Shown piece by piece: positions 2,373-42,777 of a DNA stretch of 44,783 bases; position 1 is the first letter of the stretch, and each line of letters begins with the position of its first letter. The DNA is taken from positions 1 through 44,783 of the forward strand of contig SBAY01000363.1 in NCBI GenBank assembly GCA_005239945.1, written 5' to 3'. Origin of the DNA: Nitrospira sp. GTDB lineage: Bacteria > UBA9089 > CG2-30-40-21 > SBAY01. A program made the position numbers and the translations under genes. Below the pieces are notes generated by a model that made no database searches, had not been told where the DNA came from, and saw nothing but the letters and a program-made list of their open reading frames with translations.

Positions 2373-4295
2373 TTGGCTGAGTTAAGAATTTTAGAGATTA
2401 GTTTATTGTCCCTTCTGCTGATAACCTCTTTCTGCCCTGGTTTTAGAATACTCAAAATTCTTAGGGTTAGCCCAAATAGTTTCATGGAGGAAATTGTCTT
2501 CTGCCTCGGATTGGGACTGAGCAGCCTTTCTTTGCTCGTTTTAGAATTAGGGTTGCTCGGTCTTCTTTATGATTGGATTTTCTATGTCCTATTTGGGGTT
2601 GTATTAATTATTTTTTACCCGGAGTTATGGTATTTTTTACGCCGGCTGTGGTGTGCGAAAAACAAACGAATTCCAATGTGGATATTTATTCCCTTGTCTT
2701 TCACCCTTTTTTTAGCCATAATCTTACTCCTGGTTCCTACCATTACCTTTGATGCCCTGGTTTATCATTTAGCCGTGCCGCAAACCTACATCAAACACCA
2801 CAAAATTATTTATCTGCCCAACAACTGCTTTTCAAATTATACCTTTAATACCGAGATGCTCTTTACCCTGGGACTTTTATTAAAAGGGGACTTATTAGCT
2901 AAGTCTATACATTTTCTATTTGGGCTTTTGTCTGCCCTGGGGATTTACGCCTTAGCCAGAAGATATTTTGGCCAAAGGACAGCTTATTGGTCTGTTTTAG
3001 CTTTTTGTAGTATGCCTTTAGCCGTGTTTGTGGCTACGGCTGCCTTTAACGATTTTGCCCTTACCTTTTATGAAATTCTGGCGGTCTATGCCTTTATCAA
3101 CTGGTATCACGAGAAAAATCACGGTTGGTTATTGGTTTGTGGGCTGACCTGCGGATTGGCCATTGGTACAAAATACTTTGGTGGCTTTTGCTTTGTTATC
3201 TTATCCTTAAGTATTCTCTGGCTAACATGGCGTCAACAAGGTATCTTGAAAGGGCTCAAAACCACCGCGAGCTTTGCCATCTTAGTCCTCCTACCCAATC
3301 TCCCCTGGTTGATAAAAAACCTCATCTGGACAGGTAACCCTGTTTTCCCATTGTTTTATCCAATTTTGGGTGGGAAAAACTGGAGTCAATTTCTTTACAC
3401 CCAATATTTATACGAAATGACCCGCTATAGTCAGGGACATCACCTCTTCCTGAAACCATTTATCTTCCTCTGGGAGATAAGTTTTAAACAGGGAGGAGGG
3501 ATGGAGTCGGGCATAAAACTTACCGTTGGCCCAATATTTTTAAGCCTGCTACCTTTCCTTCTGCAATGGAGAAAATTAGATTTTGGCATCAAATATTTAC
3601 TTGCCTTCTGCGGGGTTTTCTTCCTCTTCTGGTCTTATGTCTGTGCCGTGGATAGATTTGCCTTACCTTGCTTTGTTTTGTTATGTGTTGTCGTTGGTTA
3701 TACGCTTGAACGCTTTAAAGGCAAACGCCTTTATCCCTGCCTCCTGGTTATTTTATTAATCAGTCTCTGCCTGAATTGGGGATATGTCTTCAAGGTTATC
3801 CACAAAAACGCGTATTTTATGTGTCTGAAAAAGGCAAATACCGAAAAATTCCTGCTTGAAAAATCCATCATCAAGGACTACTACGATGTTATTTCCTGGA
3901 GCAATCGTCATCTGCCAGCACAAAGCAAGGTTTTATTCATTGGTGAGGTGCGAAGTTACTACTGCCTAAGGGATAAATTAGTCGCCAGCCAATTTGATAC
4001 CAACATCATCCTCAAATTAATCCGTAAATCTAAAGGAATTGAAGGGTTGCTGTGGAATTTAAAACAGTCCGGGGTAACCCATGTGCTGGACAATGAAACA
4101 GGCACAAGGTGGCTAAATCAATACTTTGACTACTTCCATTGGAAAAACAATGGAGAAAAGGAATTATATAATTTATTCAGGCAGAATTACTTAAGGTTAA
4201 TCTATGTCCATGGGACAATAGCATTATTTGAAATTCAGGGGTTAGACTTAATTCACCACGGAAACACGGAGAAAAAGGTAATCGGTAGTTGGTAA
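2373..4295 (+). CDS. polytopic GT-C-fold membrane glycosyltransferase (GT39/ArnT/PMT_2-like)
   Basis: About 12 or more hydrophobic segments, a first-loop FDALVYH motif and a soluble C-terminal domain. Start is uncertain: TTG 2373 after AAAGGGGA, or ATG 2484. The ORF-track start at 2271 reads through the repeat. The C-terminal tail (..HHGNTEKKVIGSW) is encoded by the 4256-4362 palindrome. Confidence 0.55.
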   Translation: MAELRILEISLLSLLLITSFCPGFRILKILRVSPNSFMEEIVFCLGLGLSSLSLLVLELGLLGLLYDWIFYVLFGVVLIIFYPELWYFLRRLWCAKNKRIPMWIFIPLSFTLFLAIILLLVPTITFDALVYHLAVPQTYIKHHKIIYLPNNCFSNYTFNTEMLFTLGLLLKGDLLAKSIHFLFGLLSALGIYALARRYFGQRTAYWSVLAFCSMPLAVFVATAAFNDFALTFYEILAVYAFINWYHEKNHGWLLVCGLTCGLAIGTKYFGGFCFVILSLSILWLTWRQQGILKGLKTTASFAILVLLPNLPWLIKNLIWTGNPVFPLFYPILGGKNWSQFLYTQYLYEMTRYSQGHHLFLKPFIFLWEISFKQGGGMESGIKLTVGPIFLSLLPFLLQWRKLDFGIKYLLAFCGVFFLFWSYVCAVDRFALPCFVLLCVVVGYTLERFKGKRLYPCLLVILLISLCLNWGYVFKVIHKNAYFMCLKKANTEKFLLEKSIIKDYYDVISWSNRHLPAQSKVLFIGEVRSYYCLRDKLVASQFDTNIILKLIRKSKGIEGLLWNLKQSGVTHVLDNETGTRWLNQYFDYFHWKNNGEKELYNLFRQNYLRLIYVHGTIALFEIQGLDLIHHGNTEKKVIGSW

Positions 4296-4362
4296 TCGGT
4301 AATCAGGTAACTCTTTACCGATAACTGATTACCTTCTTCTCTGGGTCTCCGTGCCTCCGTGG
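4256..4362. repeat. nested palindrome (outer CCACGGA..CGGAG arms, inner GGTAATCGG/CCGATTACC-type arms)
   Basis: ccacggaaacacggagaaaaaggtaatcggtagttggtaatcggtaatcaggtaa ctc tttaccgataactgattacc ttcttctctgggtctccgtgcctccgtgg. It overlaps the stop codon of the upstream CDS and probably acts as a terminator hairpin. Confidence 0.75.
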
Positions 4363-4431: not shown

Positions 4432-5082
4432 ATGTATTTAGTAAGATGGTTATGCCTTTGTTTAATAATATTTTTGGGGGTTGGCTGTAATCAAGGAATT
4501 GCACCAAAAGAGGAGCTCAAACCACTACCAGGTTTAAAACCTGTACCAGGTTTTAAACCTGAAATTGACAGTGCCGTTCAACAGGAAATAATCCAGGAAG
4601 GTAATGTCAAAGGAAGTCCAGGATTACCACCTGCAAAGATTACACCGCCAATAGGAAGCAAGAAAAAAGAGGGGATTGAAGAACAATCTAAGCAAGCACA
4701 AATCCATTATCTTCAACAAAAACCTATGGAAATCGAGACAAAAGAGATTAAGTGGTATACCTCTTTTGAGAAAGGATTAAAGGCAGGTAAAGAAGAGGGA
4801 AAACCTTTGATGGTAGATTTTGAGGCAAGCTGGTGTGGTTGGTGTAAGAAGTTAGATGAAATTACCTACAAAGATACACAAGTAATAACCCTTTCCAAGA
4901 AATTTATTCCGGTTAAGGTTGACTGTGATACCGACCGTGTTACTCCTCAGAAATATGGGATAAGGGGATTACCAACTATTATCTTCATGGATTCTGCCGG
5001 GCAAATACTTCATCAAATAATAGGTTATCGTGGCCCGGAAGATTTTGCAGCAGAAATGAACAAGGTGGTAAATGAAAATTAA
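4432..5082 (+). CDS. secreted/lipoprotein thioredoxin-fold protein (thiol:disulfide oxidoreductase-like)
   Basis: Signal peptide with a lipobox-like LGVGC, a Pro/Lys-rich linker, then a thioredoxin fold with SWCGWCKKLD (CxxC) and a GLPT cis-Pro loop. Confidence 0.7.
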   Translation: MYLVRWLCLCLIIFLGVGCNQGIAPKEELKPLPGLKPVPGFKPEIDSAVQQEIIQEGNVKGSPGLPPAKITPPIGSKKKEGIEEQSKQAQIHYLQQKPMEIETKEIKWYTSFEKGLKAGKEEGKPLMVDFEASWCGWCKKLDEITYKDTQVITLSKKFIPVKVDCDTDRVTPQKYGIRGLPTIIFMDSAGQILHQIIGYRGPEDFAAEMNKVVNEN

Positions 5083-5184
5083 CCGTTTATGAATCAGAAA
5101 GGGTTCAAAAAGTCGAGGGAGATTATCCTTAACCCCTTGAACCCTCTGACAATATTTTATCAAGAAAAAAGGAGGAAAGAAAAA

Positions 5185-5361
5185 ATGGCGGCTGTAGTTG
5201 ACAAAGAAAATTGTGTGGCCTGTGAAATGTGTATTGATGTCTGCCCGACTAATGCCATAAGTATGATTGACGATGTGGCTGTGGTAAATGAAGACGAATG
5301 CACAGACTGTGGCACTTGTGTCGAAGAATGCCCAAATGAGGCTATCTCAATACCTGCATAA
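5185..5361 (+). CDS. 2x[4Fe-4S] ferredoxin
   Basis: Trimmed to ATG 5185 after AAAAGGAGGAAAG. Carries two CxxCxxCxxxCP motifs (CVACEMCIDVCP, CTDCGTCVEECP). Confidence 0.85.
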   Translation: MAAVVDKENCVACEMCIDVCPTNAISMIDDVAVVNEDECTDCGTCVEECPNEAISIPA

Positions 5362-5784: not shown

Positions 5785-5792
5785 GAGAAAGG

Positions 5793-5881
5793 AAATAGGT
5801 AAAAGGTAATCGATAAAAGGTAATCGGTTATCAGGTAAGTAGTTACCGATAACCGATTAACTTTTACCGATTACCTTATTT
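5793..5881. repeat. GGTAATCGG-word palindrome
   Basis: aaataggtaaaaggtaatcgataaaaggtaatcggttatcaggtaa gtag ttaccgataaccgattaacttttaccgattaccttattt. A long imperfect hairpin that nearly fills the trxA-downstream gap. Confidence 0.75.
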
Positions 5882-7441: not shown

Positions 7442-7517
7442 GAATGGTAAATGGTTATCGGTAATCAGGTAATCGGTTGTTACCGATTACCTGATTACCG
7501 ATAACCGATTACCATTC
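7442..7517. repeat. near-perfect GGTAATCGG-word palindrome
   Basis: gaatggtaaatggttatcggtaatcaggtaatcgg ttgt taccgattacctgattaccgataaccgattaccattc. It starts immediately after the def stop codon. Confidence 0.85.
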
Positions 7518-7530
7518 AAGGGGGTGTGCT

Positions 7531-8304
7531 ATGGAATACATTTATGGACCCGTGTCTTCATGGAGATTAGGAAGTTCACTGGGTATCGATTTGCTTTCAC
7601 AGAGGCATAGGATATGCACCTTTGACTGTATTTACTGTCAGCTTGGTAAAGGAAAGAGATTTGCTTCGTCAAGAAAGGTGTATGTTCCCACCCACAAAAT
7701 AATCAAAGAGTTAGAGATGGTATCATTGCCTCAACCTATTAATTATCTAACACTTTCAGGGCGTGGTGAACCTACACTGGCAGAAAACTTAGGTGAGACA
7801 ATAACGGCAATAAAGGCAATCCGAAAAGAGCCAGTAGCGGTTTTAACTAACGCATCCTTAATAACAAATGACAAAGTAAGGGCAGAACTTTCTTTAGCCG
7901 ATTTTGTATCAGTCAAATTAGATGCCTCATCCGAGGAGTCATTTGAATTGCTCAATAAACCCGCCCCAGGGATTAAATTTGCACAAATCCGCCAGGGCAT
8001 AAAACAATTCAAAAAAGAATATGGTGGAATATTTGGGCTACAGATTATGTTTATTGCCCAAAATAAAGATAATGTCTCTGAATTAGCCGAGTTGGCTTTT
8101 GAACTCAACCCAGATGAGGTGCAGATAAATACCCCTTTGCGTCCCTGTCCAATCAAACCGCTGTCTAAAGAAGAAATCTCTATGATAAAGGGTTATTTTA
8201 AAGGATTGAATGTCGTCTCAGTTTATGATAGAACACCCAAAGAAATTGAACCTATCAATGCAGAGGATACTTTAAGGCGACGGGGAAAGATTGAAATTCC
8301 GTAA
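7531..8304 (+). CDS. radical SAM protein, function unknown
   Basis: CTFDCIYCQ is a CxxxCxxC cluster motif near the N-terminus. GRGEPTL is a SAM-binding GGE-like motif. SD GGGGG lies upstream. Confidence 0.75.
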   Translation: MEYIYGPVSSWRLGSSLGIDLLSQRHRICTFDCIYCQLGKGKRFASSRKVYVPTHKIIKELEMVSLPQPINYLTLSGRGEPTLAENLGETITAIKAIRKEPVAVLTNASLITNDKVRAELSLADFVSVKLDASSEESFELLNKPAPGIKFAQIRQGIKQFKKEYGGIFGLQIMFIAQNKDNVSELAELAFELNPDEVQINTPLRPCPIKPLSKEEISMIKGYFKGLNVVSVYDRTPKEIEPINAEDTLRRRGKIEIP

Positions 8305-8335
8305 TCCATCAGTTACCACTCACAAATAAATCTTC

Positions 8336-8364
8336 TTGACAATACGAATAAGGATAGGTATAAT
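8336..8364 (+). promoter_or_regulatory. consensus sigma70 promoter TTGACA-17-TATAAT abutting the guaA start (leaderless-type)
   Basis: TTGACA 8336-8341, 17-bp spacer, TATAAT 8359-8364. Only tagttt (6 nt) lies before ATG 8371, and there is no SD. Confidence 0.6.
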
Positions 8365-8370
8365 TAGTTT

Positions 8371-9921
8371 ATGATAGCGATATTAGATTTTGGCTCACAA
8401 TATACACAACTTATTGCCCGGAGGATACGCGAACAACAGGTCTATTGCCGGATATTACCTTATAACCCAACACTTGAGGAATTAAAGGAGGCAAAAGGCA
8501 TAATCCTTTCTGGAGGTCCAGCAAGTGTTTATGACCAGAATGCACCGCATGGGGATCCGAAAATCCTGCAATTGGGTATCCCGGTATTAGGTATTTGTTA
8601 TGGTATGCAGTGGTTAGCTCAAGCCTTAGGTGGCGAGGTTAAGAAGGCAGCGCAAAGAGAGTATGGTAAGGCAAAACTGCAAATCATCGATTCAAGCACA
8701 ATGAGGCAAGCTTCAACAAAGCAAGCTTCACTTTTGGCAGGAATTTCTGCAGAAACTCAAGTCTGGATGAGCCATGGCGATAAAGTAGAACGTCTGCCTG
8801 ATGGATTTGAGATTATTGGTAAAACCACCAACTCGCCTGCCTGTGCCATTGGAAATCATCAAAAAAATATCTATGGGGTTCAATTCCACCCAGAGGTAAT
8901 TCATACCACAGGCGGCACGCAAATAATTAAAAATTTTCTGTTTAAAATATGTAATCTGAAACCTACCTGGACGATGGAATCCTTCATTGACCACTCGATA
9001 AAGAAAATCAGGACTGAGGTAGGCAAAAAGAAGGTTATTTGTGCCTTGAGTGGTGGTGTGGACTCATCTACCGTCGCCGTTCTTATCCATAAGGCTATTG
9101 GCGACCAACTTACCTGCATATTTGTCAATAACGGTCTGTTAAGGAAAAATGAGCCGGAACGCGTCATTAAAACCTTTAGGGATTATTATCATATCAATTT
9201 GGATTATTGTGATGCTCAGGAAAGATTCCTTACAAAACTTAAAAATGTCTCCAGCCCTGAGTTGAAACGCAAAATCATTGGTCATGAATTTATCAAGGTA
9301 TTTGAGGATGAGGCGAAAAAAATCGGTAAGGTGGATTTTCTGGCACAGGGCACCCTTTATCCGGATGTAATTGAAAGCATATCTACCAAAGGTCCTTCGG
9401 CGGTAATTAAGACACATCACAATGTAGGTGGTCTGCCGGCGAAGATGAAATTGAAATTAATCGAGCCATTCAGGGAGTTATTTAAGGATGAGGTGCGAAT
9501 TTTAGCCAAAGAGTTAGGTCTGCCGGATGAAATTATCTGGCAACACCCTTTCCCAGGGCCAGGATTAGCTATTCGGATAATTGGTGCGGCAAGTCCCAAA
9601 AGGTTAGACATCCTTCGTGAGGCAGATTGGATAATCGATGAAGAAATAAAGAAGGCTGGATTATATCGGTCGCTCTGGCAGTGTTTTGGGGTGTTTTTAC
9701 CGGTTAAAACTGTGGGGGTAATGGGCGATGAGCGAACCTATGAGAATGTCATTGCCATCCGTGCCGTTACCTCTTCTGATGCCATGACCGCTGATTGGGC
9801 TCAATTACCGCACTCACTGTTAAGTAAAATCTCTAACCGTATCGTTAATGAGATTAAAGGCATAAACCGGGTTGTCTATGACATCACCTCTAAACCGCCG
9901 GGAACGATTGAGTGGGAATAG
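8371..9921 (+). CDS. guaA: GMP synthase (glutamine-hydrolysing)
   Basis: 516 aa. N-terminus [18 protein letters not shown], the GATase CYGMQ active site, the ATP-PPase SGGVDSS motif, and the C-terminus KPPGTIEWE. Confidence 0.97.
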
Positions 9922-11334: not shown

Positions 11335-11495
11335 GAGGTAAGATATGCCACAAAATCACTAAGACACAAAGAATTAGCATTGAGCAAAGAGCACGGAGCA
11401 GGGAAATTCTTTTTTCTCCAGGCTCTATGCTCCAGGTTCAAAGCTCTCTCTTTGTGCCTTTGTGGCTAAAGAAATGTGTGTAAAGGAGGAAAAAA
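11335..11495 (+). repeat. structured ~140-170 bp repeat, copy 1 (5' of the porin-like gene)
   Basis: gatatgccacaaaatcac..agacacaaagaattagcattgagcaaagagcacggagcagggaaattcttttttctccaggctctatgctccaggttcaaagctc..ctttgtgcctttgtggctaaa. Terminal inverted repeats are GCCACAAA...TTTGTGGC. The tail atgtgtgtaaaggaggaaaaaa carries the SD and is shared with copy 3. Confidence 0.85.
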
Positions 11496-17728: not shown

Positions 17729-17895
17729 CTTCTGCGAAATAAGAAATGTTAAGCGAGGAGAGATATGCCACAAAGTCACCAAAACACAAAGAATTAGCAT
17801 TGAGCAAAGAGCACGGAGCATGGAAATTCTTTTTTCTCCAAGCTCTATGCTTCAGGCTCAAAGTTTTTTTAGTGCCTTTGTGTCTTTGCGGCTAA
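17729..17895 (+). repeat. structured ~140-170 bp repeat, copy 2 (5' of queC)
   Basis: Nearly identical core to copy 1 (..gatatgccacaaagtcacc..acacaaagaattagcattgagcaaagagcacggagcatggaaattcttttttctcc..). The upstream extension cttctgcgaaataagaaatgttaagcgagg is shared with copy 3. Confidence 0.85.
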
Positions 17896-17921: not shown

Positions 17922-18728
17922 ATGAAAAAGGCAGTTATCTTGCTTTCCGGGGGATTGGATTCTACTACCACCCTTTATTGGGCAAAAAATCAAGGATACA
18001 CTTGCGTCTGCCTGATTTTTGACTACGGCCAGCGACATCGAAAGGAAGTTCAATGTGCCATAAAAATAGCCGAGAGGATAGGCTGTGAATTCCAGGTAAT
18101 CAAATTCAAGTTTCCCTGGCTGAGAAGTGCGTTACTTGATAAAAGGATGCCTATTCCTAATTCCTCCTTAATAACGGGGGGCAGTGAATATCCCCCCTTA
18201 ATAAAGGGGGTCAGGGGGTGTTCCCCCTTAATAAAGGGGGTCAGGGGGTTGTCTCCTACAGAAATTCCATCTACTTATGTTGTTTCATCCAATCCAAAAT
18301 CCAAAATCCAAAATCCAAAATTCCAAACAGAAATTCCATCCACTTATGTTCCAGCCCGCAATACCATCTTTCTCTCCTTTGCCCTATCTTGCGCCGAGGC
18401 AATTGGGGCACAGACAATAATTATAGGGGCTAACGCCTTAGACTACAGTGGTTATCCTGATTGTCGTCCTGAATATTACGAGGCATTCAGGAAGGTAGCG
18501 GCACTTGGAACCAAACAAGGCGTGGAAGACAAACCAATAGAAATTCTTACCCCATTAATTAATAAGACAAAGGCGGAAATCGTAAAATTAGGGCTCAGCC
18601 TTAATGTCCCGTTTGAACTAACCTGGTCATGCTACAAAGGTGGCAAAAACCCCTGTGGGAAATGCGATAGCTGTTTGTTGCGAAGTAAAGGCTTTAACGA
18701 GGCAAAAATACAGGACCCGATATTATAG
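17922..18728 (+). CDS. queC: 7-cyano-7-deazaguanine synthase with a ~55-aa repeat-derived in-frame insertion
   Basis: SGGLDSTT PP-loop, DYGQRH, TYVPARN, DYSGYPDCR and the C-terminal Zn site CYKGGKNPCGKCDSC are all present. About 268 aa, against about 220-230 aa recalled for E. coli and B. subtilis QueC. The extra segment maps to 18161-18326. Confidence 0.88.
   Translation: MKKAVILLSGGLDSTTTLYWAKNQGYTCVCLIFDYGQRHRKEVQCAIKIAERIGCEFQVIKFKFPWLRSALLDKRMPIPNSSLITGGSEYPPLIKGVRGCSPLIKGVRGLSPTEIPSTYVVSSNPKSKIQNPKFQTEIPSTYVPARNTIFLSFALSCAEAIGAQTIIIGANALDYSGYPDCRPEYYEAFRKVAALGTKQGVEDKPIEILTPLINKTKAEIVKLGLSLNVPFELTWSCYKGGKNPCGKCDSCLLRSKGFNEAKIQDPIL
18161..18250 (+). repeat. 3 x 30-bp tandem hairpin units (CCCCC-TTAATAAA-GGGGG) inside queC
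   Basis: Units are ttcctccttaataacggggggcagtgaata / tccccccttaataaagggggtcagggggtg / ttcccccttaataaagggggtcagggggtt. They translate as SSLITGGSEY / PPLIKGVRGC / SPLIKGVRGL. Confidence 0.9.
18258..18350 (+). repeat. 24-bp direct repeat flanking a 45-bp AATCCAAAAT-word insert inside queC
   Basis: acagaaattccatctacttatgtt (18258-18281) and acagaaattccatccacttatgtt (18327-18350) both encode TEIPSTYV. Between them lies gtttcatccaatccaaaatccaaaatccaaaatccaaaattccaa, the same word as the intergenic hairpin arm at 21094-21125. Confidence 0.9.
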
Positions 18729-19790: not shown

Positions 19791-19899
19791 TATTTAAATA
19801 CCTCCTTGAATTATTAATTAAAAATTATGAATTAAAAATTAAAAATTGAGGGATAAGAAAGTATCTTTTCCTTGATTTTCAATTCATAATTCATAATTT

Positions 19900-20937
19900 T
19901 TAATTTCTCAATTTCTCTACTATTTTCTTGACTTCTTCTGCCCTTTCCTTGGCACAGATAAGGATAGCCTCTCCACTATCCACGATAATCAAATCAGAGA
20001 TTCCAAGTGTAGCAATCATTTTTTTATCTCCCCTGATGATACAATTTTGCGTATCGATTCCCACATGTTCACCCAGGACAACATTATTATTTTCATCTTT
20101 AGGATATATCCTTTCCAAAGCCTTCCATGAACCAACATCGTCCCAGATAAAATCCCCTTCGAGCATCAGGATATTTTTCGCCTTTTCCATTACACCAAAA
20201 TCTATAGAGATATTTTCTACCTCCTGATAGAATTCCTCTAACTCAGCCTCCCGGCAATTTTGAATTTTTATTAATCCTGAATATAACCCGGGCATAAATT
20301 TAGAAAAGGCATTAAGAATTGCCTGGACATGCCAGATAAATATACCACTATTCCAGAAATACCCTCCTTGAGCAATAAACCCCCTGGCGGTATCCAGATT
20401 GGGTTTTTCTTTAAATGAATGGACCTTATAAATAGAGATACCATTTTTTATCTCTACTTTTTTATCCACTTCTATATAGCCATAACCTGTTTCAGGACGG
20501 GTAGGTTTAATCCCAAAGGTGATAAGATTTTCTTTTTTTTGAGCCAACTCATAACCCAGGGATAAAATCTTTAAAAATTTCTCCTCATCCGGAATAAAAT
20601 GGTCTGCCGGTAAAACCACAAAGCTTGCGTCTTTATCCTTTTTCCTTAAGTACAAAGCGGCTAAGGCAATAGCCGGAGCAGTGTTCTTTCGCCCTGGCTC
20701 AACAATAATATTATCCTGAGTAAGACTACTAATTCCAGACAGAATTTTATCCCCGATGTTTTTATTGGTAACAATCAATATCCGCTCTCGTGGAATCAAA
20801 GGGGCAATTCGAGTAAGCGTTTCCTCTAATAATGTCTTTTTGCCTGTAATTGATAATAATTGTTTGGGTGTATCTGGTTTACTTTTTGGCCAGAATCTAT
20901 CCCCAAATCCACCTGCCAGAATCACACCATAAAGCAT
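19900..20937 (-). CDS. manC: mannose-1-phosphate guanylyltransferase (no PMI domain)
   Basis: ILAGGFGDRFWPKS N-terminal nucleotidyltransferase motif, VLPADHFI and GYGYIE. 345 aa. Confidence 0.8.
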   Translation of the reverse strand: MLYGVILAGGFGDRFWPKSKPDTPKQLLSITGKKTLLEETLTRIAPLIPRERILIVTNKNIGDKILSGISSLTQDNIIVEPGRKNTAPAIALAALYLRKKDKDASFVVLPADHFIPDEEKFLKILSLGYELAQKKENLITFGIKPTRPETGYGYIEVDKKVEIKNGISIYKVHSFKEKPNLDTARGFIAQGGYFWNSGIFIWHVQAILNAFSKFMPGLYSGLIKIQNCREAELEEFYQEVENISIDFGVMEKAKNILMLEGDFIWDDVGSWKALERIYPKDENNNVVLGEHVGIDTQNCIIRGDKKMIATLGISDLIIVDSGEAILICAKERAEEVKKIVEKLRN

Positions 20938-21019: not shown

Positions 21020-21218
21020 CTCAGGTAATCCCTCAGTTACCAGTTAATACCAAATGGATTTTGGATTTTGGATTGAGGAATCTTAATATCCTTAATCCAA
21101 AATCGAAAATCTAAAATCCAAAATTGTAATCGTAATCTGATACCTGATAGCTTACCAACCGGTAACTGAGGCATTACGTAATCGGTGATCGGTAAATATT
21201 TATCTGATTACCGATTAC
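21020..21218. repeat. compound palindrome: CCTCAGTTACC/GGTAACTGAGG outer arms, GGATTTTGG/CCAAAATCC inner hairpin, then a GGTAATCGG-word hairpin
   Basis: ctcaggtaatccctcagttacc..ggattttggattttggatt gaggaatcttaatatcctt aatccaaaatcgaaaatctaaaatccaaaatt..ccggtaactgaggcattacg, then taatcggtgatcggtaaatatttatctgattaccgatta. It lies between the lptC stop and the manC promoter. Confidence 0.8.
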
Positions 21219-22814: not shown

Positions 22815-23004
22815 CTTCAATTCAGACATTAGACCATCGACTAAAGACTTAAGTCGTAAGCGGTTAGCCGAAAGATTACTCTTTCAGTTTTTGGAGGAGA
22901 CAGGTGTTCATCCATTATCTTTTTCTCCATCTGAAAGCTGACGGTTGAATGTTTACGACTTAAGTCTGATGTCTAAAGTCTGAAGTCTAATGTCTGAATT
23001 GAAG
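22815..23004. repeat. ~190-bp imperfect palindrome between the ybbR-like gene and kdsD
   Basis: Left arm cttcaattcagacattagac..gacttaagtcgtaa..ctttcag..tggagga. Right arm ttctcca..ctgaaag..ttacgacttaagtc..gtctaatgtctgaattgaag. Perfect sub-stems of 14 bp (gacttaagtcgtaa) and about 15 bp (ttcaattcagacatt). Confidence 0.8.
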
Positions 23005-23435: not shown

Positions 23436-23485
23436 CTATCCTCCCTGAATATAATTAACAATTAATAATTGATAATTGTTAATTG

Positions 23486-24274
23486 TTAATTGATTTCTGA
23501 CTTCTCTGTAAAACCTTCTGTCTCTTTTGCCTTATAAAGGGTAAGCATTTCTGTCAGGCTTTCTTCATCTAAATTACTACGCATCTTTCCATCCATGGCA
23601 ATAGATATACTTCCTGTTTCTTCAGAGACAACCAGAATTAAGGCGTCTGTTTCTTCAGATAGTCCCAGGGCCGCCCGATGTCTCGTTCCCAGTGGTATAG
23701 TTACATCAGGATTTTGAGTTAGTGGTAAGACACAACTTGCGGCTATTATTTTATCTTCCTGAATGATTACTGCCCCATCATGTAGGGGACTATCAGGGGT
23801 AAATATTGTCTTTAGCAGTTCATAACTTACCTCTGCATTTATTCTTACTCCTGTTTCTATATAATTTTTTAGACTTATATTTTGTCTTAAAACAATTAAT
23901 GCCCCTGAACCTTCCTTTGATAGAGCCATGATTACCCTTACAATTTCGGTGATTAATTTACTTTCTTGCTTGAAAAATTTCTTTAAAATATAATTTTTGT
24001 CAATTTCTCCTATGACTCGTCTTAATTCCGGTTGAAATAAAATCACAAAGGCTAAAGGTAAAATAGTCCATAAACTTCGAAGAATCCAATCTATCGTGTA
24101 TAATTGAAGTAAATGTGCACCAAAGGAGGCAATAATCAGAAAGGCAAGGACCTTCAACCCCTGGACAGCCCTTGTCTCTCTTATCAAGATAAATAACCAA
24201 TAAAAGATACAACTAATAAGTAATATCTCTAAAATATCTAAAAATCTAATTGCCAGTGGAAAAAAATTAATCAT
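23486..24274 (-). CDS. cdaA: diadenylate cyclase CdaA (3 TM + DAC domain)
   Basis: Three N-terminal TM helices, with the DAC motifs SPLHDGAVII, GTRHRAALGLSEETDA and VVSEETG. Confidence 0.9.
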   Translation of the reverse strand: MINFFPLAIRFLDILEILLISCIFYWLFILIRETRAVQGLKVLAFLIIASFGAHLLQLYTIDWILRSLWTILPLAFVILFQPELRRVIGEIDKNYILKKFFKQESKLITEIVRVIMALSKEGSGALIVLRQNISLKNYIETGVRINAEVSYELLKTIFTPDSPLHDGAVIIQEDKIIAASCVLPLTQNPDVTIPLGTRHRAALGLSEETDALILVVSEETGSISIAMDGKMRSNLDEESLTEMLTLYKAKETEGFTEKSEIN

Positions 24275-26762: not shown

Positions 26763-27017
26763 AATCGTTCAAAGGATGGAATTTTTGAGGGGGAAAACCT
26801 TTTGAAAAAGGTTTACCCCCTCAAACTCCCCTTTTCCAAAACTTTTTAACAACAAGAGTATAAAATTTTATTTACCCCATTTCTTATAAATGGGTAAATA
26901 AAATTTTATACTCTTGTGGTTAAAAAGTTTTTAGGAAGAGAGGGGTTTAAGGGGAGAGAAACATTTTTTTCAAAAAGGGTTTCTCTCCCCTTAAAAAACA
27001 CCTCTCTTTGAACAATT
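26763..27017. repeat. ~255-bp compound palindrome: closing stem plus three hairpins
   Basis: The closing stem aatcgttcaaag (26763-26774) pairs with ctttgaacaatt (27006-27017). H1 is 26784-26825 (tttgaggggg..ccccctcaaa). H2 is 26836-26935, a stem of about 45 bp (aaactttttaacaacaagagtataaaattttatttaccc / gggtaaataaaattttatactcttgtggttaaaaagttt). H3 is 26951-26990 (ggggagagaaac / gtttctctcccc). Confidence 0.85.
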
Positions 27018-29395: not shown

Positions 29396-30826
29396 ATGAA
29401 TTACGAGGCAGTTATTGGTTTAGAAACCCATGTTCAATTAAAGACCAAATCCAAGATATTCTGTGGTTGTTCGACTAATTTTGGGGCTGAACCTAATTCG
29501 CAGACCTGCCCGGTATGTTTAGGGTTTCCTGGTGTATTACCGGTTTTAAATAAAAAGGTGGTGGAACTCGCTCTTAAATCTGCCTTAGCCCTAAATTGTC
29601 GGATTACCCCAAATTGTAAGTTTCACCGCAAAAATTACTTCTACCCTGACCTGCCAAAGGCATACCAGATATCCCAGTATGATGAGCCATTGGCTATTGA
29701 TGGGTATTTAGATGTGGAAGGGGTTAAAATAGGGATTACCCGGGTGCATTTAGAAGAGGATGCGGGCAAACTTATTCATACGCAAGAAGGGGATAGCCTG
29801 GTGGATTATAATCGTTGTGGGATGCCGTTAATTGAGATAGTCAGCCACCCTGATTTAAAAACTCCACACCAGGCTTATGAATACCTCACGAATTTAAAAG
29901 CTATCCTCGAATACCTCGAGGTCTCAGATTGCAATATGGAAGAGGGGTCATTACGCTGTGATGCCAATGTCTCCATTAGACCTGTTGGACAGGTTGAACT
30001 CGGCACGAAAACCGAGGTAAAAAATATGAATTCCTTCAAGGCGGTAGAGCGGGCACTAACCTATGAAATAGAAAGGCAGATTAAGGTTGTTCAACAAGGC
30101 GAGCAAATTAACCAGGAGACAAGGTTGTGGGATGAGAAAAAGGAGATAACTACCCCGATGCGAAGCAAAGAGGAGGCTCATGATTACCGCTATTTCCCAG
30201 AGCCTGATTTAGTGCCGTTAGAGGTCTCACAGGAGTGGACAGAGAAGATAAAAGCCGGTATCCCAGAATTACCTCAAGCCAAAAGACAGCGATTCATGGC
30301 AGGCTACGAATTACCACCTTATGATGCCCAGGTATTGACGGCAAACAAATCTTTAGCCGATTTCTTCGAAAATACCACCAAACTCTATCCAAAACCAAAG
30401 ATGGTCAGCAATTGGATAATGACCGAGGTGTTAGGCTATTTAGCTGGGGCAAATTTAGATATTAGCCAATCTAAACTTACCCCAACACATCTGGTTAAAA
30501 TGTTAGAACTGATTGATACCGGCACGATAAGTGGTAAAATTGGTAAAGAGGTATTGCCTGAAATATTTAAAACCGGTAGAGCGCCGGTTGAAATAATTCA
30601 GGAAAAAGGGCTAACTCAAATCACAGATGGAGATGAGATAGTAAAGGTGATTGAGCAGGTAATCACGGAGAACCCAAAGGCAGTTGAAGACTATAAAGCC
30701 GGTAAAAAGGAGACATTAGGTTTCCTGGTCGGTCAGGTGATGAAACTGACCAAAGGTAAGGCAAACCCGCAGCTCACAAATAAACTTTTGCAAGAAAGAA
30801 TAGGACTTGACCTATTCTTGTTGTAG
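29396..30826 (+). CDS. gatB: Asp/Glu-tRNA amidotransferase subunit B
   Basis: Trimmed to [15 protein letters not shown], the canonical GatB N-terminus. Also [12 protein letters not shown] and a C-terminal YqeY-like GKANPQ region. The ORF-track start at 29297 reads through the promoter. Confidence 0.92.
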
Positions 30827-33325
30827 TGCGGCTAAACTATTTCTGGCTGGGCTATAATTTGGGTCTATGGCAAGCACCTTTTGAAAGGCATCTATGGCCT
30901 CAAACCTTTTCCCTAACTGCGAATAGGCTATACCAAGATTATAAAGTGCGGCGATATTCCCCGGCTTTAAGGAGATAGCCTTCTGGAAGGAGACAACGGC
31001 TTCATTTAGCTTACCCTTAGAGATATAGGCACTACCCAGATTTATATGAATAAAATCCTGGTTTGGGTCTAATTGGGCGGCTTTTTCGTATTCTGAAATG
31101 GCCTTATCCACCTCCCCTACCCTTTGATAGACCATCCCTAACCCATAGTAACCCTTAGCATCCTGGGGTCCAAGTTCGATAATTTTATTGAATTGTCCAA
31201 TTGCCTCTTGAGTTTGACCTGAGTCGTTATAGACCATGCCAATATTATAATAACTTATCAATCGTTCTGGGTCGGCCAGTAGTGCCTTTTGGTATTCTGC
31301 GATAGCCTGAGAATATTTACCCATATCCTTGAAAAACCCACCGCGATTGTTATAGGAAGTGGCATAGTTAGAAATGTTACTTGCTACCCGCTCTTCTTTA
31401 TAAATACTTTCGTCAAGTATGCCTCGATACCTAAACCGTAAGTTCTCATCTATGGCAGATAACTGTTCTTTTAAGGTTGCCTCCTTTTTGAAGACCCGAT
31501 GGCAGATGCCTGTCGGCACTAAGGTATAACCCTGGGCTATACTTTCATCAAAGGGTAGAAAAACAGGCCGATTGGGATTAGCCTCAAAAATGGCGTCAAA
31601 CCGTGTCTTGATAATTCGGCTTGCCTCGTCGGTTAGCCTTTTCACCCTGTTTTGCGGCACAAACTCAAAATTCAACTCCCGCTTAATCTGATTAGCATAC
31701 CAATCTAAATATAATGAATGCTGGTCAATTAAGGTTACATCCTGGCGGATATTTTCTACATAATGAAGATACCACAACGGAAAGGCAAAGGTATCGCCTT
31801 TGATGTAAAGGATTGATTTTTCGTCTAATGGGGAAAGGATATTCATCCCATAGTCATAAGAGTAATAATTTTTGCGGTGGTCTCCATAATGATGATTACA
31901 AGCCCAGGAAATTACCGGGATAAGAAGGAAAAAATAGGGTAGAAGGACAGCTAAAATCCCCTGCTTTATCCTTTTACCCAGCCACTCATTGAATATTCCC
32001 ACCCCATAGCCAATAAACAAACTATAAATAATATAAGACGGGATATAATAATCCTCGATGTTATGGATACTATACCTTGAGGAATGAAGAAAATCCACCA
32101 TAACAATTAACCCTAGGTAGATGAAGGTGTTCACCCTTTGTTTGTAGAAGAAAAACAGCCCGACAAATCCAATCCAAATGAGATATGGAGTGAATTGGTT
32201 GATGAAAAATATAGGGTGCTCAACAAATATTCGTTTAAGCAGGGTTGGAAGTGAGGTAGCAAAATAATAGCCATATTCCTTAGCCGTGATATGGTCAATA
32301 AACCGCTCAAAATTATCCGGGCAACCCCAGTTAATTATGGGATGGGCCGCGGCACGAACAGGTAAGTAGGCATATAAAATGATGGGTAGGAAAAACAGAC
32401 AGGCCATCTTAAGTATGGCGTTAAATGTTAAGAGGTTAGGGTGCTTGCGCCAGATTATGATGATAAGAAACGCACTTGCCGGCACTAAGAATATAGTTTG
32501 CAAGTGGTGGGTGAAGGCTAATCCGAGGGTGAAAGCGAATAAGTAAAGTAAGCCTGGAGCGTGGAGCGTGGAGCGTGGAGCGTGGAGTTTTTTTCTCCCT
32601 GCTTCCTGCTCCGTGCTCCGTGCTCCCCACTCCTTTCTCCCTGCTTCCTGCTCCATGCTCCGTGCTCCGTGCTCCATGCTTTGTGCTTCTACCCATTTCA
32701 GGAGGATAAAAATCAAGACAGTGGCAAACAAGGCATTCAGGGTGTATTTCTCGGCAATAACTGCCTGCTGCCAGAAGACACGGGCAAAACATAGCATTAA
32801 AGCGGCTATTACCGCAGGGATGAGGAACGAAAGCATGGAGCGTGGAGCGTGGAGCGTGGAGCGTGGAGCGTGGAGCGTGGAGTTTTTTTCTCCGTGCCCC
32901 GTGCTCCGTGCTCCGTGCTCCGTGCTCCTACCTACTTTTAAACTTATAAAATACACCATCATCACGGCTAAGGCGGCACTTGCAGCCGAAAATAGGTTGT
33001 AGCGATAGGCAATGTTGCCCAATGGAATAAGACTAAATAGCTTACCGAGGAGGCAATACAAAGGATAACCGGGTGGATGTGGAATACCAAGGGTATAGGA
33101 CGCCCCTATCATATCCCCGGAATCATGCAGGTCTATCGTTGGGGTTAAGGTATGAAGGTAAATAAAGAAGGAAAAGAGGAAGACTCCTATGCCCACAAAA
33201 TAATCAGGGAGGGTAAAAATTCTCGGCGTGATTACCTCCGTCGACGGTTTTATAAAATCCAATAAGGGTTTTTTCGAAGGCGATATTGATTTTGGCTTTG
33301 GTGATTTTTTCTTCTTTTTCCCCAT
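30812..33325 (-). CDS. DUF2723-type (TMEM260-like) GT-C membrane glycosyltransferase fused to C-terminal TPR repeats, with two repeat-derived in-frame insertions
   Basis: [24 protein letters not shown] is the DUF2723 signature as I recall it. Many TM segments, and at least 6 TPR units at the C-terminus ([26 protein letters not shown] ..). The start is set at ATG 33325 (MGKKKKK) because a consensus promoter occupies 33336-33364. Confidence 0.7.
32553..32690. repeat. GGAGCGT-heptad hairpin element inside the glycosyltransferase CDS (copy b, right arm duplicated)
   Basis: cc tggagcg tggagcg tggagcg tggagcg tggag tttttttctcc ctgcttcctgctccgtgctccgtgctcc ccactcctttctcc ctgcttcctgctccatgctccgtgctccgtgctcc. 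It translates on the minus strand as ..[43 protein letters not shown].. Confidence 0.9.
32833..32928. repeat. GGAGCGT-heptad hairpin element inside the glycosyltransferase CDS (copy a)
   Basis: (ggagcgt)x6 ggag ttttttt ctcc gtgcccc (gtgctcc)x4. It translates on the minus strand as ..[32 protein letters not shown].. between two hydrophobic segments. Confidence 0.9.
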
Positions 33326-33335
33326 CTTGATTAGT

Positions 33336-33364
33336 ATTATACCCCAAAAGCGTATTTTTGTCAA
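33336..33364 (-). promoter_or_regulatory. consensus sigma70 promoter (TTGACA-17-TATAAT on the minus strand) abutting the glycosyltransferase start
   Basis: The minus strand reads ttgaca aaaatacgcttttgggg tataat actaatcaag ATG(33325). Ten nt separate the -10 box from ATG, with no SD. Confidence 0.55.
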
Positions 33365-42639: not shown

Positions 42640-42654
42640 AGGAGGAGAGAATTA

Positions 42655-42735
42655 GTAATCGGATTTACAGGTTTTAAACCTGGAGCGGATTAAACGGATA
42701 AATAAAAAAATAAAATCCGCTTAATCCGATTACTA
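42655..42735 (+). terminator. GTAATCGGATT-word hairpin after gap
   Basis: agtaatcggatt tacaggttttaaacctgg agcggattaa..ttaatccgc? The right arm taaaatccgcttaatccgattact pairs with the left arm, which also contains an internal caggttt/aaacctg mini-hairpin. There is an A/T-rich loop and no clean U-tract. Confidence 0.4.
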
Positions 42736-42777
42736 AATTAAATTTTGACATTACCAATGAAAAAATAGGAGCAAATC

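Follow-up and report, generated by a model that had tools for sequence, protein, structure and literature searches.

That tiny palindromic repeats can colonize essential genes in frame is textbook knowledge for Rickettsia only. Tandem repeats of 7 nucleotides (nt) with their own described words are known from heterocystous cyanobacteria as short tandemly repeated repetitive sequences (STRRs), and reportedly occur also inside a functional gene, rnpB. The Rickettsia palindromic elements (RPEs), described from that genus, are small dispersed palindromic repeats of ~150 bp that lie in frame in unrelated housekeeping genes, where they encode a conserved peptide compatible with the fold (PMC10969869). 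REPINs (doublets of repetitive extragenic palindromic sequences, REPs, that form hairpins) are short imperfect palindromes, often arranged as inverted doublets forming a larger hairpin, in some cases repeated in tandem, non-autonomous and highly similar within a genome (PMC3116915). Here we analyze a stretch of bacterial DNA of 44.8 kb (contig SBAY01000363.1, called the window throughout) in which queC, an essential tRNA-modification gene, carries about 50 (~51) extra codons of junk-like repeat DNA. The locus extends the settling of small repeats in protein loops well outside Rickettsia, to free-living uncultured lineages and with a much smaller unit. With a probability of roughly two in three, the extra codons are in our view non-functional repeat DNA, layered in three steps in a permissive loop of the QueC protein, with the frame kept by selection on queC.

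Three tandem 30-bp units, a direct repeat of 24 bp and an (AAAATCC)n array make up the insert, and the reading frame of queC is kept through all of them. A first-pass annotation made from the sequence had already described the three units, the 24-bp repeat and the heptamer array as in-frame features of the gene, and our positions agree with it to within 1 nt. The features of the locus, in window positions, are:

17922..18728, + strand: queC (7-cyano-7-deazaguanine synthase), an intact open reading frame (ORF) of 268 residues that hosts the insert
18160..18189, + strand: degenerate hairpin unit 1, CCTCC-TTAATAAC-GGGGG, its second G-run having decayed to GTGAA
18190..18219, + strand: hairpin unit 2, CCCCC-TTAATAAA-GGGGG-TCA-GGGGG (covariance model R1, 27.3 bits, E=7e-6)
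18220..18257, + strand: hairpin unit 3 with the conserved family tail TGTCTC(CT) (R1, 54.4 bits, E=7e-14 over 18218-18259)
18258..18281, + strand: DR1, the upstream copy of the 24-bp repeat, encoding a redundant TEIPSTYV; the derived copy, missing in the orthologues L002 and L003 described below
18282..18326, + strand: linker GTTTCATCC, (AAAATCC)n heptamer array and CAAACA, together encoding VSSNPKSKIQNPKFQ; homologous arrays lie at the same site in L002 and L003
18327..18350, + strand: DR2, the downstream copy of the 24-bp repeat, the original, with the functional T-EIPSTYV running into the invariant PARN motif

Tandem Repeats Finder (TRF) reports the units as one array at 18160-18249 (period 30, 3.0 copies, 85% matches), and a repeat search places them at 18160, 18190 and 18220. 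Between units 2 and 3 only the first 3 nt differ, while unit 1 is 77% identical to both. An 18-nt core, CCCCCTTAATAAAGGGGG, occurs with up to 3 mismatches at three sites in the window, all of them in queC, compared to 0.05 expected from shuffled sequences. Unit 3 is the sole full-length copy, among the three, of a module found across phyla, whose 27-base pattern it matches, and it is also the only unit common to the window and its sister genome, where it aligns to 10241-10274 of contig L001. The two copies of the 24-bp repeat start 69 nt apart, differ by one mismatch (96% identical) and both encode TEIPSTYV; between them, TRF finds the heptamer array at 18291-18327 (period 7, 5.1 copies). The fold of the insert region is not above that of dinucleotide shuffles (z=-0.2 as RNA, +1.1 as DNA), owing to the fact that the G5 and C5 runs survive dinucleotide shuffling. 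The word hairpin, as used for queC, thus states a sequence fact and does not denote a thermodynamic outlier.

The strongest evidence for a layered history comes from the DNA of orthologues. A search of 5.8 billion proteins gave one close relative of similar length, P0002 (269 residues, 80% identity), from the metagenome-assembled genome (MAG) Yes70-31 (GCA_030018635.1), all others being 217-256 residues long. We aligned the window to the contig of P0002 (L001, the sister MAG) and to those of P0003 (L002, a ‘Nitrospirota bacterium’, GCA_043816605.1) and P0006 (L003, GCA_040757115.1). L001 and L002 are syntenic with the window, and L003 lies in a different gene neighborhood. The first-pass annotation had proposed to define an empty site from related genomes, and such sites exist: L002 and L003 carry a heptamer array at the exact position of the insert, without the hairpin unit and without the 24-bp duplication. 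In L002 an array (GAAATTC)n abuts GAAATTCCC and runs straight into GAA-ATT-CCC (Glu-Ile-Pro), and in L003 an array (GAAATTC)2(GAAATCC)4 abuts GAAATCCCA and runs into GAA-ATC-CCA, its unit being the first 7 nt of the conserved codons with the local synonymous variant included. In L001, by comparison, a single hairpin unit is present along with the two copies of the 24-bp repeat, and its AAAATCC array is that of the window, identical in length and sequence despite ~15% divergence of the gene. Metagenome contigs scanned for intermediate states or closer QueC relatives gave none above 57% identity.

Two small differences order these parts further. In the window and L001 alike a TCT of the upstream repeat copy corresponds to TCC in the downstream one, and the duplication is therefore older than their split. 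In L001 the upstream copy has also replaced the family-invariant Tyr by Cys (TEIPSTCV) while the downstream copy keeps Tyr, which makes the upstream copy the redundant, decaying one. Judged from the alignment, the downstream copy and the array are original and the upstream copy is new. The insert thus has three components that differ in age and nature, an old heptamer array, then one unit and the 24-bp duplication, then a difference of one versus three copies of the unit.

Selection is visible in the gene around the insert. Between the window and the sister MAG the flanks are 92-94% identical at codon positions 1 and 2 and 67-73% at position 3, a pattern that indicates purifying selection on queC. 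The insert portion common to both is 92.3% identical, compared to 84-87% in the flanks, and its third codon positions are 89% identical, compared to 67-73% (Fisher p=0.014). Since third positions are more alike in the insert than in the flanks, it appears to be conserved as DNA and not as peptide; it is nucleotide-level conservation that we find, where the first-pass annotation had named protein-level conservation as the outcome that would count against its proposal.

The protein tolerates all of this, as far as sequence and model can tell. The product of queC matches Pfam PF06508 (E=1.8e-72, 243.7 bits with a cut-off of 22) in two stretches covering both halves of the domain. Residues 2-60 align to 4-62 and residues 135-263 to 86-213 of Bacillus subtilis QueC (3bl5), and the window protein has 74 residues at the stretch where the crystallized enzyme has 23. 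Its retention of the family motifs, asserted earlier from the sequence, is confirmed by a 120-sequence alignment, in which every invariant residue is present: the PP-loop SGGLDS (S9, G10, G11, D13, S14), P139, T141, Y142, V143, R146 and N147, and the C-terminal C237, C245, C248 and C251, which align with the B. subtilis motifs and which we take to be the zinc ligands. In an AlphaFold2 model built from these 120 homologues the predicted local distance difference test (pLDDT) score is >90 in the core and <50 for residues 82-135. The best Foldseek matches of the model are two QueC crystal structures, 3bl5 (top, target-normalized TM 0.81-0.83) and 2pg3. The insert peptide is thus predicted to be disordered. 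Modeling had been suggested earlier as a way to see whether the insert is a surface loop, and it puts the insert in a disordered, length-variable one. The spacing from K74 to P139 is mostly 15-19 residues among the 120 homologues and up to 41 in unrelated lineages, compared to 44 in the sister MAG and 64, the longest, in the window, so that the insert site is the most length-variable loop of the QueC family. Five homologues (P0085, P0096, P0022, P0118 and P0067) show repeat-like peptides, EFSNSTNSINSSNSI, HSNILTSQHSNRI and ANPRTREPANSRTSQHANTRTPEH, in the loop before IPSTYV, a hint that short-period DNA repeats arose there independently in unrelated QueC lineages.

We propose the following course of events. 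In a first step, evident from the orthologues, an ancestor of the whole clade gained a microsatellite of heptamers immediately upstream of the codons for the conserved Glu-Ile-Pro, most simply by replication slippage of the coding sequence, since the unit in L002 and L003 is the first 7 nt of those codons (GAAATTC/GAAATCC). The word would later have been homogenized to AAAATCC in the window lineage. In a second step, placed and timed by the filled and empty sites, the common ancestor of the window organism and Yes70-31 received one module of ~34 nt (in order, C5 stem, loop, G5 stem, 3 nt, another G5 run and the TGTCTC tail), which landed between Pro-Ile-Pro and the array along with a second copy of the 24 bp encoding TEIPSTYV. 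This module is probably a building block of non-autonomous elements of many phyla that resemble REPINs or MITEs (miniature transposable elements with inverted repeats). It may have arrived as single-stranded hairpin DNA mobilized in trans or by template switching from another copy, and the 24-bp repeat would be a by-product of segmental duplication rather than a transposon target-site duplication. In a third step slipped-strand mispairing may have given the three tandem 30-bp copies of the window lineage. The C5, G5 and G5 runs of each unit could pair in alternative registers, and 30 bp preserves the frame; the difference between one copy and three is plain from the two genomes, and expansion is its presumed direction. 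The SPLIKGVRG... peptide would be an unstructured loop without a role of its own, and that only the stop-free frame of the module is found in genes would reflect the purging of other insertions by selection. Read in this way, queC offers a dated series, from microsatellite to element with duplication to tandem expansion, in which a loop grew from ~15 to 64 residues with the frame kept.

The first-pass annotation had taken the 30-bp unit for a dispersed palindromic repeat, and other genomes bear this out, with copies both intergenic and in frame in unrelated genes. The unit belongs to a module of ~34 nt, TCCCCCTT..AAGGGGGnnAGGGGGwTGTCTC. We scanned 185,579 species-representative genomes with the pattern TCCCCCTT-N2-4-AAGGGGG-NN-AGGGGG-N-TGTCTC, which has 27 fixed bases, and obtained 69 exact matches in 24 assemblies of ~11 phyla, compared to ~2e-4 matches expected by chance according to our own arithmetic. 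By record name the hosts are Nitrospirota/Nitrospirae, Ca. Desantisbacteria, Terriglobia, Calditrichaceae, Brevinematales, Ca. Jettenia, Ca. Brocadia, several Bacteroidota including a complete Ekhidna chromosome, Desulfobacteraceae, Sericytochromatia, Hydrogenedentota and Nitrospinota. A covariance model adds ~30 diverged copies, and relaxed patterns find related ones in L002, between genes as well as within a gene for a histidine kinase. A 27-base core that is identical across ~11 phyla argues for either a shared recognition machinery or a horizontal spread. To us, nothing in the analysis is more surprising than the identity of the 34-nt core between phyla.

Most copies are intergenic, and their flanks beyond the core are specific to each genome. 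Inverted doublets are frequent, for instance in L010 and at L017 5440-5580, a perfect palindrome of 133 nt. In Jettenia a doublet consists of two hairpins closed by ACAACCCCC/GGGGGTTGT, and in Terriglobia the pairing partner of the module tail is a GGGACAACCCCC that lies downstream. The module of JBDRHR, a related MAG, sits in an element of ~170 nt with terminal inverted repeats GTAATCCTTCAGTTAC, where the hairpin unit is tandemly amplified 2-3 times, the period being 27 nt, which shows tandem amplification to be a trait of the module family. The terminal word of this element, GGTAACTGAGGGATTAC, is also found in the window at 8301-8317 (-), 21025-21041 (-) and 21161-21177 (+). Across 76 distinct copies no pair shows changes on both sides, the stem being an invariant C5/G5, and neither an RNA nor a DNA structure can therefore be argued from covariation. 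Rfam gave no match at gathering score in the queC region (sub-threshold noise only) and a single tRNA in 18 module-bearing loci, while plasmid BLAST, phage BLAST and a pattern scan of IMG/VR gave no match to the module. A full-text literature search with the module sequence or its peptides gave nothing of relevance, only papers on G-quadruplexes and a Salmonella prophage. We also considered an integron attC site, as GGGGGTTAGGGGG resembles the GTTRRRY core, and rejected it because the two positions that precede AGGGGG are free to vary.

At least six independent in-gene events are known, queC included, in four named phyla and the window's own clade. Copies with Pfam matches on both sides lie in the HATPase_c domain of a histidine kinase (L002), in RsmH (L043, as two tandem 33-nt units), in the inter-domain linker of MutL (L039), in a DUF2162 transporter (L064) and in a TPR-GT41 protein (L030), and a probable one lies in the C-terminal part of an HlyD-like protein (L005). 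Same-strand copies use one reading frame throughout, which gives SPL[IE]KGVRG[LM]S, or SPFEGG.G.VS in a variant with a 6-nt loop. Around the in-gene copies other than queC a search for target-site duplications yielded nothing but short and inconsistent matches, TTCAATT flanking the copy in RsmH being an example. For annotation, this means that SPL[IE]KGVRGLS, SPFEGG.G.VS and loop peptides of 7-residue period such as NPKSKIQNPKF mark repeat DNA and not protein motifs.

Some further surroundings of module copies may be recorded. In the Ekhidna sp. chromosome (NZ_OZ245746.1; L058 6650-8000) the module lies within tandem composite repeats of ~250 bp downstream of a DEAD-box helicase gene, and these repeats also hold sequences translating as CHPEQSEGS and ILHFVQDD. 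A variant CCCCC-GCTGGC-GGGGG-TAG-GGGGG stands at 4636-4658 of L002, a short way upstream of a PDDEXK_3 gene. Nearby is a gene for a 23S_rRNA_IVP/bAvd four-helix bundle, with dense AAATGGT heptamer arrays around it at 7735-7986 and 8388-8429 (the genes of this locality are at 4858-5226 and 8005-8379).

The heptamer arrays have a different distribution. The window contains nine perfect arrays of period 7 and none of period 5, 6, 8 or 9; Yes70-31 has 9, JBFLYA 5 and JBDRHR 25 (compared to 0-3 for other periods), and such arrays are absent from the other module-bearing phyla. Because the arrays are confined to the clade while the module is spread over phyla that lack them, the two are independent repeat classes. 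Most intergenic spacers of the window hold heptamer arrays, usually as the two arms of a hairpin and in many different words. Among the ~50 words found, AAAATCC occurs at nine arrays in three genomes, among them those in queC, in the DUF2723 loops of the sister MAG and in intergenic hairpins. As had been seen in the first pass, the heptamer word of queC is also the arm of an intergenic hairpin: outside queC its 19-mer recurs in the window only in both arms of the hairpin at 21055-21124 (0.03 matches expected). The main heptamer features outside queC are:

4257-4353, 5789-5877, 7442-7517, 19807-19914, 21055-21124, 22824-22988, 23453-23491 and 42652-42736, window: examples of spacer hairpins with heptamer arms
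21055..21124, no strand assigned: intergenic hairpin with arms (TGGATTT)n and (AATCCAA)n, the heptamer word of queC, bracketed by inverted GTAATCCCTCAGTTACC (21025-21041) and GGTAACTGAGGCATTAC (21161-21177)
32551-32680 and 32832-32928, - strand: in-frame heptamer hairpins in two loops of a DUF2723/TMEM260-like membrane protein of 850 residues (30812-33364)

The word pair at 21025-21041/21161-21177 that brackets the AATCCAA hairpin here is the one that ends the C5/G5-module element in JBDRHR. The DUF2723 gene is the second gene of the window with in-frame repeat DNA, its hairpins reading (GGAGCAC)n-A7-(CTCCACG)n on the coding strand. Its orthologues have other heptamer-coded peptides, or none, in the same two loops, and the sister MAG has NPKSKIQNPKF, which is the queC word. 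There the flanking DNA is near-identical by eye, and the array is a one-armed (ATCCAAA)n that differs at 3 of 7 unit positions in every copy. From such comparisons turnover of the heptamer arrays appears to be rapid and concerted. On the + strand the arms of the DUF2723 hairpins read (AGCGTGG)n and (CTCCGTG)n and match each other only with G-U pairs, which become A-C mismatches on the coding (-) strand, so a perfect RNA hairpin would need an antisense transcript.

Other repeats of the window include a nested hairpin element of ~125 nt in two copies that are ~90% identical by eye (11340-11475 and 17760-17895), with outer arms GCCACAAA...TTTGTGGC and inner heptamers GAGCAnn/CTCCAnn. The second copy stops 27 nt upstream of the queC start codon. 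The segment 4245-4375 has the same nested architecture with GGTAATC heptamers inside. One intergenic region holds near-perfect palindromes at 26784-26825, 26838-26931 (40-nt arms, 98% complementary) and 26946-26995, which are unrelated to the queC repeats.

Among other explanations, the one that survives best is that the insert is functional, either as a heptamer contingency locus switching queC, as regulatory hairpins in mRNA or DNA, or as a recruited SPLIKGVRG loop. A 7-nt unit is not a multiple of 3, and slippage by one unit would indeed shift the frame, but the constancy of the array between the window and L001 gives no sign of length switching. Regulatory hairpins find no support in stem covariation, in Rfam families or in fold stability, which is not above shuffles, though the higher third-position conservation of the insert would suit a functional sequence. 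In favor of a function, the same 12-residue peptide is found in proteins of different phyla, and a single frame serves all in-gene copies when one more frame would be free of stops too. However, the peptide is predicted to be disordered, the proteins that contain it are unrelated and without a common function, and the redundant TEIPSTYV copy is decaying. On balance we consider a function of the insert improbable.

Still less likely is the model closest to the first-pass annotation, in which a single RPE-like mobile element, comprising both the units and the heptamer word, transposed into queC and left the 24-bp repeats as a target-site duplication. The direct repeats do flank the heptamer segment, the heptamer word also builds the intergenic hairpin 21055-21124, and modules and heptamer arrays adjoin at some other loci, such as L002 13270-13360 and L064. 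Yet the orthologues without duplication and without unit already carry the array at the same codon position, in register with Glu-Ile-Pro, which largely refutes the model and with it the view of the heptamer segment as an insert with a duplicated target. The hairpin units moreover lie outside the repeat pair and not between its copies, a length of 24 bp is to our knowledge far longer than the known target duplications of bacterial transposable elements, and the other in-gene copies show no consistent flanking duplication. The hairpin units and the AATCCAAAAT segment, which had been treated as one mobile class, differ in taxonomic range and are better regarded as two. Finally, an assembly artefact or a decaying pseudogene is hardly credible, for though short-read assemblers struggle with short G/C hairpin repeats and tandem units and the window is from an uncultured organism, the unit, the two repeat copies and the array recur at 92% identity in MAG GCA_030018635.1, which was assembled independently, a 90-bp tandem repeat is below typical read length, the ORF is intact with every invariant family residue, and the substitution pattern is that of purifying selection.

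Several observations weigh against a layering of mobile repeat DNA in queC. No neighboring protein family is shared and no transposase was found in an all-versus-all BLAST of ORFs within 1.5 kb of the module in 8-kb stretches, where the ORFs belong to generic families (ABC ATPase, GATase, GAF, response regulators, TPR). The window has no copy of the module outside queC (covariance model with filters off), and in the sister assembly both the pattern scan and the covariance model match in queC only; the family may be extinct in this lineage and the queC copy a fossil. No evident target-site duplication accompanies the module copies, and no site polymorphic within a species was seen. For these reasons module mobility is something that we infer, and the earlier proposal that the repeats are mobile in this genome finds no second copy, in window or sister assembly, to stand on. 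The order of events within the second step is not recoverable from two filled and two empty sites, and plain tandem duplication alone would not place a hairpin unit at the position expected for the first array copy. Local slippage explains the growth of arrays but not fully the sharing of words at unlinked loci, which hints at exchange between arrays. The excess nucleotide conservation of the insert comes from 130 aligned bases and is of only modest significance.

Beyond the layered history of queC, a wider hypothesis is possible, though we hold it to be doubtful. The ~34-nt module could be the recognition hairpin of a trans-acting mobilization system (HUH/RAYT-like, RAYT being the REP-associated tyrosine transposase, or other), spread horizontally through at least 11 phyla of sediment, groundwater and wastewater bacteria and inserting often enough that many proteins without relation to each other now carry its 12-residue peptide, SPLIKGVRGLSP. 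Within the clade of the window, heptamer arrays at unlinked loci would be swapped or overwritten by a second process, which would so keep remodeling surface loops of housekeeping proteins. This second process is proposed because the same word is found in queC, the DUF2723 loops and intergenic hairpins, and because words are replaced wholesale between sister genomes.

Compared with known systems, the module is most like the RPEs, lying in at least six independent genes in one frame, at a disordered-loop site in QueC, with both intergenic and in-gene copies across the family. It is however only 30-34 nt long, while RPE families are ~100-150 bp, its hosts are non-rickettsial bacteria of ~11 phyla, there is no sequence match, and its queC copies sit alongside a microsatellite and a segmental duplication. 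The module thus behaves like an RPE without being a member of the described RPE families, and of the RPE-like insertion originally proposed for queC the dispersed palindromic unit in frame stands, while the single insert gives way to three components of different age. The doublets (L017 5440-5580, which is perfect, Jettenia and JBDRHR) and tandem units recall REPs and REPINs. REPs, though, are extragenic by definition, whereas at least six module copies are inside Pfam-supported genes; the module lacks a 5′ tetranucleotide of GTAG type; and a REP family is as a rule restricted to one species or genus, whereas the module core is identical across phyla. REPINs go with a cognate RAYT (Y1/HUH transposase) gene in their genome, which mostly adjoins a REPIN cluster; the 8-kb stretches around module matches have ordinary genes, with no protein family in common. 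MITEs (ERIC, BOX, Anabaena MITEs) are non-autonomous, with terminal inverted repeats and occasional in-frame ORF fusions. The JBDRHR element has inverted termini, but the copies examined showed no consistent flanking duplication, no parent insertion sequence was identified, and the queC copy is an internal module without terminal repeats. The heptamer arrays and the STRRs are both tandem 7-nt units of many words, abundant in the intergenic DNA of one lineage and occasionally found in a functional gene. The hosts here are MAGs labelled ‘bacterium’ or ‘Nitrospirota bacterium’, the words apparently differ from those of the STRRs, and the arrays are usually paired as inverted hairpin arms and are translated in frame in proteins.

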